Virus record (IMG/VR): IMGVR_UViG_3300005918_000018
DNA from: a virus
Taxonomy: Duplodnaviria > Heunggongvirae > Uroviricota > Caudoviricetes
Reading direction: 5' to 3' (one strand)
DNA length: 64,000 bases
Below the pieces are notes generated by a model, which saw nothing but the letters and a program-made list of their open reading frames with translations, had not been told where the DNA came from and did not search any database. The translations under genes and the position numbers were made by a program. Each line of letters starts with the position of its first letter. The stretch's first letter is position 1. Positions 16,384 through 18,541 of this stretch are shown here, piece after piece.

Positions 16384-17859
16384 ATGATAATTTGGCAAAA
16401 GCGTGAAATACAGATTTTGAAATTATTAGCTCCTTACGTAAAAAACAACATCGTTACTTATATCCTTAACTCTTTATTCAAAACAGATAGGACTGCCCAG
16501 TCTATTACAGATAAGAAACGCCGTCTGGGTGTTATAACTAAAAGTTCTGATTTTCAGGGTGCTTTGGATGCCGTAAAGGAAAGCACCCTTCCTGAAACTC
16601 TGAAAAAACGTGTAGTAATTGCTTTTACGAAAGCAACTAAGAAACAAAGTCCTCTGAAAGAACGAAAAAAACAATATGAAATAAAAAATGACCAGAACTA
16701 CTCTGTGTTAGAACAAGGGTCAGCTATCAAACCAAACTCGTTGGAGGAGATGGTAGAGATTTTCGACATCGACCAAGATGTTTGGACTGTAGATAGATAT
16801 GCCGTTAACCGTTGGGATCAGGCTCAGAAGACTCCGACAGGAGCTAAAGTGATTCCCTTGTATCAGATCAAAGTCTGGCTTATACGAACAGACCCCATTG
16901 TTTATAAATGGCCTGCTGTTCAACCAATTAGCTGTGACAAATTTACTTTCAAGAAACCAAAACCTCCAAAGGCTGGGAAGAAACTACGGAAAGCTATTAT
17001 AATCCCGGATGCCCAGATTACTTATAGACGTGATGCTGAAACTGGATACCTTGACCCGACTCATGATCGTGAAGCTTTTGATGTTATCTGCCAGATTGCA
17101 GAAAAAGAAAAACCGGACGACATTATTCTTCTGGGTGATATGCTTGATTTACCTGATTGGTCTGACAAGTTCCTCATCACTCCTGATTTAGTAGCTACAA
17201 CTCAACCTTCCCTATTGGAATTTCATTGGTGGTTACAACGATTGGTGGGCATCACTCCTCATGTTGTTTACTTGGAAGGTAATCACGAAATGAGACTCGA
17301 GAAAGCTGTTGCTCGTAATCTGGTAGCAGCCAGCGGGTTGAAACCTGCTAACCAACCATCAGGACCTTCTGCAATGAGTGTCCGAAACCTGTTAGGTTTA
17401 GATGAGTTAGGTGTTGAATACATAGGCCCATATCCTCAAGGGGAATACTGGATCAATGATAATCTGAAAGCTCAACATGGTAATACAGTCCGACAAGGTT
17501 CTGGTGCTACAGTAGCAAGCTGTATAAAAGACCTTTTTGTATCAACCATCTTTGGTCATATTCACCGAGTAGAACATGCTTCTAAACTCCGATGGGCTAA
17601 AAAGACTGCTTGTATACAAGCGGTATCTCCTGGAACGATTGCTCGGTTAGATCCGGGGATAGTTCCTTCAAACACAGCTCGTCAGAATTGGCAGAACGGT
17701 TTTGCTATCGTAAATTATGAACCGGGTGATGGAGCTTTCAATATTAATGTTGTCCCCATCATCGAAGGTAAATGTATTTACAGAGATCAAACGTGGGTAG
17801 GAAAAAGCCCCGTTAAAAAGATTGCTGTTGATACCGGACGTAAGGCTTTTGTAAAGTAA
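16384..17859 (+). CDS. calcineurin-like metallophosphoesterase
   Basis: 'LLGDMLDLPDW' and 'GNHE' are MPE motifs II and III. AAGGAG RBS before the second Met. Confidence 0.7.
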   Translation: MIIWQKREIQILKLLAPYVKNNIVTYILNSLFKTDRTAQSITDKKRRLGVITKSSDFQGALDAVKESTLPETLKKRVVIAFTKATKKQSPLKERKKQYEIKNDQNYSVLEQGSAIKPNSLEEMVEIFDIDQDVWTVDRYAVNRWDQAQKTPTGAKVIPLYQIKVWLIRTDPIVYKWPAVQPISCDKFTFKKPKPPKAGKKLRKAIIIPDAQITYRRDAETGYLDPTHDREAFDVICQIAEKEKPDDIILLGDMLDLPDWSDKFLITPDLVATTQPSLLEFHWWLQRLVGITPHVVYLEGNHEMRLEKAVARNLVAASGLKPANQPSGPSAMSVRNLLGLDELGVEYIGPYPQGEYWINDNLKAQHGNTVRQGSGATVASCIKDLFVSTIFGHIHRVEHASKLRWAKKTACIQAVSPGTIARLDPGIVPSNTARQNWQNGFAIVNYEPGDGAFNINVVPIIEGKCIYRDQTWVGKSPVKKIAVDTGRKAFVK

Positions 17860-17893
17860 TTATGCCTGTTTAGCTCAGTTGGTAGAGCACATC
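17851..17893 (+). repeat. direct repeat: duplicated 5' part of tRNA-Thr(UGU) plus upstream leader
   Basis: AGTAATTATGCCTGTTTAGCTCAGTTGGTAGAGCAC is identical to 18462-18493. It ends exactly before the anticodon stem. The pair flanks the 17975..18406 nuclease gene. Confidence 0.7.
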
Positions 17894-17974
17894 CTTGAGG
17901 TATTTTTAATAAAACATTGCTTTCTAACAGACCTCCTGTTACAGTAGGTACTGGTCTAATTTAGGAGGTGGTTA

Positions 17975-18406
17975 ATGGCTACAGATACAAAGAGTAAAGG
18001 TGATCGGACGGAAGGAATTTTTTTAGCAGAAATGCTAAAAAAAAGCATCCCTGTTCTTTTACCTTTTGGAGATAACCAAAGGTATGATCTTGTGATTGAT
18101 GTAGGAGGTCAACTCCTAAAAATACAATGTAAAACAGGTCGTTTTAGGGATGGTGTTATTATGTTTAATACCTGTAGCTCCCACGCTCACAGAGGTGGTG
18201 GCTCCCGTTCTTATAGAGGGGATATAGATTATTTTGGGGTTCATTGCCCATACAATGATTCCGTTTACATGATTCCTGTTGAAAATGCCCCTTTACGGAG
18301 GATGTCCATGCGTTTGGAGGCTCCTAAAAATAATCAGAAAACTGGAATTCATTATGCTGTAAGGTACGAGCTGGAAAAAACTCTTTTAAGTATAAGATCA
18401 CTCTAA
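17975..18406 (+). CDS. PD-(D/E)XK-like nuclease (putative homing endonuclease)
   Basis: 143 aa. 'RYDLVIDVGGQLLKIQCKT' fits the D..(D/E)xK pattern. Sits between the tRNA 5' duplicate and the intact tRNA-Thr. Confidence 0.5.
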   Translation: MATDTKSKGDRTEGIFLAEMLKKSIPVLLPFGDNQRYDLVIDVGGQLLKIQCKTGRFRDGVIMFNTCSSHAHRGGGSRSYRGDIDYFGVHCPYNDSVYMIPVENAPLRRMSMRLEAPKNNQKTGIHYAVRYELEKTLLSIRSL

Positions 18407-18417
18407 AGTTATTTTTT

Positions 18418-18464
18418 AGCTTAGTTTTCATTTTTTGGGGGTTGTTGGGGTAAGAAAGTAATTA
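18418..18464 (+). promoter_or_regulatory. conserved phage promoter-like motif copy 3 (variant) driving a tRNA
   Basis: AGCTTAGTTTTCATTTTTTGGGGGTTGTTGGGGTAAGAAAGTAATTA, immediately upstream of tRNA-Thr(UGU). Confidence 0.5.
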
Positions 18465-18465
18465 T

Positions 18466-18541
18466 GCCTGTTTAGCTCAGTTGGTAGAGCACCTGATTTG
18501 TAATCAGGATGTCACCAGTTCGATCCTGGTAGCAGGCTCCA
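18466..18541 (+). tRNA. tRNA-Thr(UGU)
   Basis: D-arm TAGCTCAGTTGGTAGAGCA. Anticodon stem CCTGA/TCAGG with loop TTTGTAA. T-arm ACCAG-TTCGATC-CTGGT. CCA encoded. Confidence 0.8.

Follow-up and report, generated by a model that had tools for sequence, protein, structure and literature searches.

In a huge phage of ~402 kb, a free-standing homing endonuclease gene (HEG) without an intron occupies the place in which related phages carry a tRNA-Thr(GGU) gene. We analysed 64,000 nucleotides (nt) of this phage (IMG/VR record IMGVR_UViG_3300005918_000018; the whole stretch is called the window below), in which a nuclease gene is flanked by two copies of the 5' part of a tRNA-Thr gene. In the history that we favor, an intact, intron-less HEG of the I-Ssp6803I/PF11645 family probably destroyed the tRNA-Thr(GGU) gene of this locus, and the 5' half that was orphaned in the process was later homogenised with the neighboring tRNA-Thr(UGU). 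We assigned the source to the huge phages on account of its size and because the window holds 33 tRNAs and a transfer-messenger RNA (tmRNA), as called by ARAGORN, together with genes for a GroEL-like chaperonin and an RtcB ligase.

The locus is framed by an exact direct repeat of 38 nt, AAAGTAATTATGCCTGTTTAGCTCAGTTGGTAGAGCAC, which we located with a repeat search (coordinates in Table 1). According to the list of open reading frames (ORFs), the 564 nt between the two copies hold the nuclease ORF only. A first-pass annotation, made from the sequence alone, had placed an exact repeat of 36 nt at 17855-17893 and 18462-18500 and spoken of 40 bp in its title; the exact repeat was recovered, with a length and coordinates that differ by a few bases. 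The same annotation took the second copy for the leader plus the first 27 nt of an intact tRNA-Thr, with which ARAGORN and Rfam agree, and it correctly noted a 143-amino-acid ORF between the copies, which we find at 17975-18406. It had also raised the concern of an assembly artefact. The repeat structure is not one: the 801-nt region 17800-18600 is byte-identical in 7 ENA/JGI assemblies, and more than 20 contigs show 100% identity across whichever part of 16342-19100 each of them covers. Short-read contigs break within the repeat copies, ending at 17882 or starting at 18463, as is expected for a genuine 38-mer repeat. That the repeat is an artefact or a chance resemblance between tRNAs, with an unrelated ORF in between, is therefore vanishingly improbable. 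While D-arms are highly conserved and partial matches among tRNA genes are common, the 38/38 identity takes in 11 leader bases that are not tRNA, the contigs of at least 7 independent assemblies agree on it, and the nuclease family is tied to tRNA genes throughout the homologous loci described below.

The protein encoded between the copies belongs to a known family of homing endonucleases. It matched the Pfam profile PF11645 (PDDEXK_5) over profile positions 2-137 of 138 with 126.3 bits (E=1.1e-36; curated cut-off, 26.1 bits), in line with the PD-(D/E)XK-like nuclease proposed in the first-pass annotation, and a phmmer search of PDB linked its residues 4-103 to entry 2OST, which is I-Ssp6803I (E=1.9e-7). 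NCBIfam gave no match for the protein. Upon aligning it with 17 homologs and I-Ssp6803I (alignment A2), we found the D38...Q51-x-K53 core intact and all 16 invariant columns kept; judged by these residues, the nuclease looks like an intact enzyme. The ORF is preceded by AGGAGG, and a hairpin sequestering this ribosome-binding site was considered and rejected, as it scored no better than in shuffled sequences (z=-0.68). The nuclease has 356 detectable homologs; the name given to homologs by NCBI is 'group I intron-associated PD-(D/E)XK endonuclease'. I-Ssp6803I itself is a tetrameric PD-(D/E)XK homing endonuclease with a 23-bp, pseudo-palindromic site and belongs to the group I intron of the Synechocystis tRNA-fMet gene (PMC3384342).

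Comparison with related phages, as suggested by the first-pass annotation, revealed what the nuclease gene replaced. The relatives were found in the protein database via homologs of the metallophosphoesterase (MPE) encoded upstream of copy 1; a DNA search of INPHARED with 16500-20000 returned tRNA-level matches only and no related phage, and a search of IMG/VR with the MPE protein found no related loci. In L032/L033, L036, and L034/L035, whose MPE is 68%, 73%, and 80% identical to that of the window, respectively, tRNA-Thr(GGU) starts 1-19 nt after the MPE gene, with tRNA-Thr(UGU) behind it, and the nuclease gene is absent from this locus. The HD-domain gene comes next in L032/L033 and L036, and L032/L033 go on to tRNA-Thr(CGU). 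On its left side, the replaced slot is bounded by the MPE stop plus 4 nt. On its right side, homology to the relatives sets in again at a T-run (18411/12), which in them directly follows the 3' CCA of tRNA-Thr(GGU) (alignment A3), and in L032/L033 and L036 the two tRNAs are separated by a spacer with the same promoter-like motif that in the window lies ahead of tRNA-Thr(UGU), downstream of the nuclease gene. By this alignment and the shared motif, copy 1 and the nuclease gene (17864 to ~18411) take up exactly the slot of tRNA-Thr(GGU), while the spacer before tRNA-Thr(UGU) is ancestral and hence not part of the insert. As a stand-alone ORF with a sporadic distribution at a syntenic locus, missing there in four related phages, the nuclease gene is a free-standing HEG.

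Copy 1 itself reads as a tRNA that was cut in its anticodon. The tRNA part is identical to tRNA-Thr(UGU) over nt 1-27, after which it continues with ATCCTTG (17891-17897), the anticodon stem and loop of a GGU-type tRNA (nt 28-34). This continuation matches nt 28-34 of the second tRNA-Thr(GGU) of the window, at 28090-28160(-), in register and at 7/7 positions (alignment A1); the latter gene reads CAC ATCC TTG GTAAGGATG, and nt 24-34 (CACATCCTTG) are the same in both. We estimate that an in-register match to any of 8 GGU genes would arise by chance with a probability of ~1e-3. The next bases, 17898-17901, are AGGT, which would complete the GGT and extend the fragment to T36 if AG is a 2-nt insertion. 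By this alignment, copy 1 appears to break off within the anticodon, at G34 or, allowing the 2-nt indel, at T36. The first-pass annotation had let the duplicate end at the boundary of D-stem and anticodon stem. From nt 28 on, the UGU and GGU anticodon stems are different, which is why identity to tRNA-Thr(UGU) does not extend past nt 27, but tRNA-like sequence runs on beyond this point. The copy 1 region gave a weak, partial Rfam tRNA match of 17 bits and was not called as a tRNA by ARAGORN, and no complementary acceptor strand for it was found besides that of tRNA-Thr(UGU) itself. We also considered the C-terminal tail of the nuclease as a decayed tRNA 3' part and rejected this, as the tail is not tRNA-like (p=0.51).

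The bases of the repeat can be traced to several native sequences. Copy 1 shares its first 7 nt with the final codons of the MPE gene, GTA AAG TAA (stop codon, 17857-17859); AAAGTAA belongs natively to the MPE end, L034 having gtaaagtag there, and the C-terminal V-K-stop is conserved in L028, L032, and L034. The TTAT leader and the GCCTGTT acceptor strand, by contrast, are native to tRNA-Thr(UGU), as in L032, whose UGU gene shares the leader ...AGT(AAT)TAT and the acceptor GCCTGTT with copy 2. In the relatives, the 5' parts of the GGU and UGU genes differ in the acceptor stem (GCTnnnn versus GCCTnnT), from which it follows that the 38/38 identity in the window is derived.

These observations bear on a model that builds on the first-pass annotation, in which the nuclease gene inserted into tRNA-Thr(UGU) at nt 27/28, generating a 38-bp duplication, with the intact UGU gene rebuilt downstream and the two copies serving as homology arms for further homing. 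The exactness of the repeat, leader included, is in its favor. The same layout of 5' half, HEG, and full tRNA recurs in the homolog locus L004, with it both arms of homology needed for homing into a cleaved tRNA-Thr(UGU) would be available, and the tRNA-Thr(GGU) genes to which homologs are fused share the GCCTG acceptor start with copy 1. We nevertheless consider this model unlikely: the anticodon stem of copy 1 is of the GGU type rather than the UGU type, relatives hold tRNA-Thr(GGU) in exactly this slot, the motif-bearing spacer before tRNA-Thr(UGU) is ancestral in L032, L033, and L036, and the 7 leftmost nt of the repeat belong natively to the MPE coding sequence. Furthermore, we know of no homing or transposition mechanism that yields a 38-bp target duplication. 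The footprint of a homing cassette described in the first-pass annotation thus holds in part, in that the gene is of a homing endonuclease family and lies in what appears to be the scar of an insertion into a tRNA gene; the disrupted gene, however, would be tRNA-Thr(GGU) rather than tRNA-Thr(UGU), without a 40-bp target duplication.

No group I intron surrounds the nuclease gene. PD-(D/E)XK HEGs are known from group I introns of bacterial tRNA-fMet and tRNA-Arg(UCU) genes (PMC3384342, PMC13011429), and group I introns are known to use the 36/37 site in tRNA-Thr and tRNA-Arg, among them the tRNA-Thr(GGU) of Patescibacteria (PMC13011429). The Rfam model Intron_gpI gave no match in 17780-18560 (E<=10) or in 12000-22000 (E<=1), and a group I intron was rejected for lack of an Rfam match in the window and in 22 homolog loci. 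Although RF00028 reportedly misses some tRNA introns (PMC13011429), an argument from size stands regardless, as only ~80 nt of non-coding sequence accompany the nuclease ORF and no 3' exon is present. With neither a core nor a 3' exon, the element is not a group I intron in an anticodon loop, and the tRNA that it entered would hence be destroyed rather than spliced. An element with integrase and att sites was rejected as well: no integrase gene lies between the repeats, and it is the 5' end of the tRNA, not the 3' end, that is duplicated.

The association with tRNA genes extends across the nuclease family. A tRNA lies within 1.5 kb of the nuclease gene in 65 of 66 IMG/VR homolog loci analysed, and two architectures stand out among the homologs. 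In class 2, comprising homologs of 39-58% identity, the ORF is fused to the 5' end of an intact tRNA: the tRNA starts between -110 and +20 nt from the ORF end in 20 of the 66 loci, and in 7 the offset is exactly -10, which makes the TAG stop codon coincide with tRNA nt 8-10 (U8-A9-G10). Processing of the tRNA by RNase P would, in these fused forms, remove the stop codon from the mRNA. The four closest homologs fetched with their context (L040 and L037, 58%; L058, 56%; L072, 50%) are all fused to tRNA-Thr(GGU) genes, the ones that have the GCCTG acceptor start in common with copy 1. Pectobacterium phage My1 (NC_018837.1 30019-30486) provides a cultured example, in which My1_056, annotated as hypothetical, overlaps tRNA-Ile by 7 nt. 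Fused forms are seen, among others, in L002, L003, L004, L013, L040, L058, L072, and L092, and their tRNAs are mostly Asn-GUU but also Thr-GGU, Arg, Gly, Ile, and Leu.

Class 1 comprises homologs of 27-37% identity; in at least 7 diverged phage loci (Table 1), the ORF interrupts a tRNA gene, with the insertion point at exactly 36/37. Upon joining the halves, we obtained canonical tRNA-Thr(UGU), Asn(GUU), Lys(UUU), and Pro(UGG). The insertions measure 460-489 nt, with only 10-43 non-coding nt on each side, which leaves no space for a group I core, and Rfam detected no group I intron in the class 1 loci. The insertion ends pair with each other, forming a helix that extends the anticodon stem. 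In its default mode, ARAGORN misses these interrupted tRNAs. Class 1 loci are either dead tRNA genes that are kept fresh by homing or tRNA genes with an intron that is not of group I.

Scars comparable to copy 1 were sought with a regular expression for the D-arm and a search for complementary acceptor strands, as a broad Rfam scan was too insensitive for tRNA remnants. In L016, both tRNA halves flank a cassette (nuclease, tRNA-Ile, and a small ORF) that replaces nt 32-43, and in L004 an orphaned 5' half, cut in a GT(T) anticodon, is followed by the nuclease gene and then by a full tRNA-Asn. Given the class 1 insertions at 36/37 and the scars in L016 and L004, the PF11645 family enters tRNA genes in the anticodon loop, which is also where I-Ssp6803I has its target. 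We infer the cleavage specificity of the window nuclease from its own scar, where the tRNA is cut at G34-T36, together with the homolog insertion sites at 36/37. Beside nuclease homologs, other phage tRNA arrays also contain structured RNAs, namely a phage-encoded RNase P RNA (155 bits), a GOLLD RNA (154 bits), tmRNAs, and a near-threshold twister-P1 ribozyme (59 bits versus 67).

We suggest the following sequence of events, whose order and conversion mechanism are deduced from the present arrangement. The anticodon loop of tRNA-Thr(GGU) would have suffered a double-strand break, repaired from a donor carrying the nuclease gene, such that the tRNA 5' half (through G34-T36) stayed and nt 35/37-76 were replaced by a cassette of 5' leader and ORF (~510 nt). 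The loss of this tRNA-Thr(GGU) could be tolerated owing to the second one at 28090-28160. Later, the leader and the first 27 nt of the orphaned half would have been made identical to tRNA-Thr(UGU), located 600 nt downstream, through short-tract gene conversion or through an unequal crossover followed by a deletion. The tract could have been bounded by the D-arm common to all Thr tRNAs and by AAAGTAA, a 7-nt microhomology that the MPE stop region has with the UGU leader. Copy 1 is identical to the HEG-fused tRNA-Thr(GGU) of L040 at 31/34 positions and to the resident GGU genes of the relatives at 24-28/34, which may be an indirect hint that flanking markers were co-converted along with the HEG.

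Several points weigh against this history. The GGU-type continuation of 7 nt is short, and a free local alignment of it was not significant (p=0.21); its weight comes from being in register and from synteny, by which a GGU gene is predicted at this position. No trace of the tRNA 3' half is left at the locus. Exact-protein look-ups of the MPE and HD proteins yielded no nuclease-free allele of the same strain, all contigs being identical, as in a clonal population, so that the picture of the pre-insertion state comes from relatives whose MPE is only 68-80% identical. There is no fused tRNA at the locus, unlike in the nearest homologs, and an extra deletion must therefore be assumed. Finally, the intact tRNA-Thr(GGU) at 28090 shares nt 24-34 with copy 1, and if these were the full target, the phage would cut its own genome.

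The repeat could also have arisen from the nuclease acting as a recombination factor of the tRNA array. SegB, a GIY-YIG HEG of T-even tRNA arrays, cuts within tRNA genes and thereby causes recombination-dependent local duplications and rearrangements (PMC13096335). By analogy, the window nuclease might be a domesticated or selfish tRNA-array nuclease whose breaks in tRNA genes would promote recombination, segmental amplification, or the exclusion of competing phages, with the repeat being the junction of a collapsed tandem amplification rather than a homing scar. SegB acts in this way in T6 tRNA arrays, depending on UvsX/UvsY, and the amplifications collapse without selection (PMC13096335); moreover, by our derivation, an unequal crossover via the D-arm followed by a deletion at AAAGTAA reproduces the chimera exactly, and the prevalence of tRNAs beside the homologs speaks for such a role. 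Yet no amplified or polymorphic form occurs among the more than 20 contigs, which stem from many samples, and we regard this origin of the repeat as rather improbable. As it would still need the prior replacement of tRNA-Thr(GGU), it supplements the destruction of that gene by the HEG rather than replacing it.

Two sets of contigs from the wider search touch on the stability of the locus. In L028-L030, which have the closest MPE (81%), the two Thr tRNAs are absent, and all that follows the MPE gene is a degenerate HD gene remnant with a broken reading frame (~4373-4760 in L028); these phages mark the MPE-tRNA-HD locus as a rearrangement hotspot. In the 1.1-kb contig L027 (1-1124), an identical nuclease cassette is joined to a lipoprotein-like gene within a shared 29-nt motif. 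The native context of the lipoprotein-like gene (L057 9160-9245, on a 165-kb JGI contig) holds no nuclease gene, and the 29-nt motif is identical in the native upstream region of that gene in L057 and in the spacer downstream of the nuclease. Because of this shared motif, L027 may have arisen by real recombination via the promoter-like motif or as a chimera of the assembly, and we set it aside as evidence for a second insertion.

A further reading concerns the naked insertions at 36/37, which may be protein-dependent phage tRNA introns or split tRNAs, with the window element and the tRNA-fused forms as derived states. Cleavage of the terminal helix would then fall to an RNase III-like activity or to the PD-(D/E)XK protein itself, and a phage RtcB ligase, like that of the window (39390-40799), would join the halves. 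The PD-(D/E)XK fold is common to the archaeal tRNA splicing endonuclease. We put forward this reading as a speculative one to which we attach little probability; if the naked insertions did leave at the RNA level, they would represent a new splicing route in bacterial viruses.

Table 1. Features of the nuclease locus and further sites mentioned in the text. Positions refer to the window unless loci are named.
Feature	Position	Strand	Basis
Upstream flank, metallophosphoesterase (MPE) gene, 505 amino acids	16342..17859	+	ORF list; PHROG metallo-phosphoesterase E=2e-45
Repeat copy 1, 38 nt exact	17853..17890	+	Repeat search, 100% identity; 7 assemblies
Putative orphaned tRNA-Thr 5' half	17864..17901	+	Alignment A1 and position of tRNA-Thr(GGU) in L032-L036
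5' leader of nuclease gene	17902..17974	+	Shine-Dalgarno AGGAGG at 17963-17968; without counterpart in relatives
Free-standing homing endonuclease gene, 143 amino acids, I-Ssp6803I family	17975..18406	+	PF11645 PDDEXK_5
Ancestral spacer 5' of tRNA-Thr(UGU)	18411..18454	+	T-run, then promoter-like motif; alignment A3
Promoter-like motif CTTAGTTT-N12-GGGTTGTTG in spacer	18420-18447	+	12 copies in window
Repeat copy 2, native 11-nt leader plus nt 1-27 of tRNA-Thr(UGU)	18455..18492	+	
Intact tRNA-Thr(UGU)	18466..18541	+	ARAGORN; Rfam tRNA 69.4 bits
Downstream flank, HD-domain phosphohydrolase gene	18567..18998	+	Pfam HD_4, PHROG 990; syntenic in L032/L033
Second, intact tRNA-Thr(GGU)	28090..28160	-	ARAGORN
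Sites of the intergenic motif	9401, 11783, 18420, 22515, 23079, 25303, 34963, 35016, 39339, 51332, 57470, 58215		
Class 1 loci in IMG/VR: L094, L097/L098, L099, L101, L112/L114, L133, L090	Locus positions ~1430-1990		
Homolog loci with structured RNAs	L005 3929-4261; L002 3961-4401; L006 1404-1719; L117 3028-3364; L120 2306-2372		

Other features of the window touch on its tRNA genes and their expression. The threonine tRNAs form two sets (UGU, GGU, and CGU) on opposite strands, at 18466-19075 (+) and at 28090-28238 (-) plus 30372-30447 (-), which differ in sequence and order; the sole intact tRNA-Thr(GGU) of the window belongs to the second. The intergenic motif that also lies in the spacer before tRNA-Thr(UGU) has the general form CTTAGTTT-N12-(G/A)TGGGTTGTTG, often followed by GTAAGAAG, and occurs 12 times in the window versus 0.02 times expected. 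It is oriented with the downstream genes, is present in related phages too, and is probably a phage promoter or leader; TAGTTTTG, found in some copies, agrees with TAnnTTTG, the -7 consensus of Bacteroidetes. A second free-standing homing-endonuclease-like gene, of the HNH type (14798-15598 (+); PHROG 10822, E=5e-50), lies in the tRNA array between tRNA-Phe (14533-14608) and tRNA-Leu(UAA) (15589-15665), and its 3' end overlaps the start of the latter by ~10 nt. A sub-threshold match to a hepatitis delta virus (HDV)-like ribozyme (HDV-F-prausnitzii; 12601-12680 (+); 36.4 bits versus a gathering score of 44; E=7e-4) starts directly after tRNA-Leu(CAG) and ends just before tRNA-Tyr, and is possibly a tRNA-processing ribozyme of the array. 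The RtcB-type RNA ligase gene (+; PHROG 'tRNA splicing ligase', E=3e-69) lies in the same tRNA-rich region and is relevant to tRNA repair or to protein-dependent tRNA splicing. The phage tmRNA (24915-25268 (-); tag ANTELAIAA) deserves attention since any ORF ending within a tRNA would leave a non-stop mRNA once the tRNA is processed.

Compared with known systems, the window element is closest to I-Ssp6803I, with which it shares PF11645, the D...Q-x-K core, the size (143 versus ~150 amino acids), and the interruption of a tRNA gene in the anticodon loop. It differs in that the nuclease is only ~34% identical, resides in a phage rather than a cyanobacterium, has no group I intron, and appears to have hit tRNA-Thr(GGU) rather than tRNA-fMet. 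Like SegB, it is a free-standing HEG in a phage tRNA array that is present or absent among related phages. Unlike SegB, a GIY-YIG nuclease encoded between intact genes, it is a PD-(D/E)XK nuclease that replaced a tRNA gene and left a half-tRNA scar. Collaborative homing was reportedly described by Zeng, Bonocora, and Shub in 2009 for F-CphI, a free-standing endonuclease encoded beside the cyanophage psbA gene that is said to cut an intron-insertion site. The near homologs of the window nuclease resemble it in that they adjoin an intact tRNA of a gene type that other family members enter at 36/37; this likeness is one of architecture alone, with no intron partner in any locus examined. Integrase-borne tRNA islands likewise have a partial tRNA duplicate that flanks inserted DNA beside an intact tRNA gene, but they duplicate the 3' part, whereas the window element lacks an integrase, duplicates the 5' end, and has an insert of only ~0.5 kb. 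Counts of stand-alone PDDEXK_5 genes exist for Jug jumbo phages, and at least part of that account makes no connection to tRNAs (PMC12880540).

Overall, the window element is an intron-less, tRNA-destroying form of the known PD-(D/E)XK HEGs of tRNA genes. A family described as passengers of group I introns, that of I-Ssp6803I, is here found free of an intron in a huge phage, at the cost of a tRNA gene. We found neither the fused nor the naked 36/37 architecture in the papers searched, and the two may be a more novel result than the window element itself. Both bear on how HEGs colonise RNA genes before, or without, introns, as well as on the fluidity of phage tRNA arrays and on the annotation of tRNAs in phage genomes.

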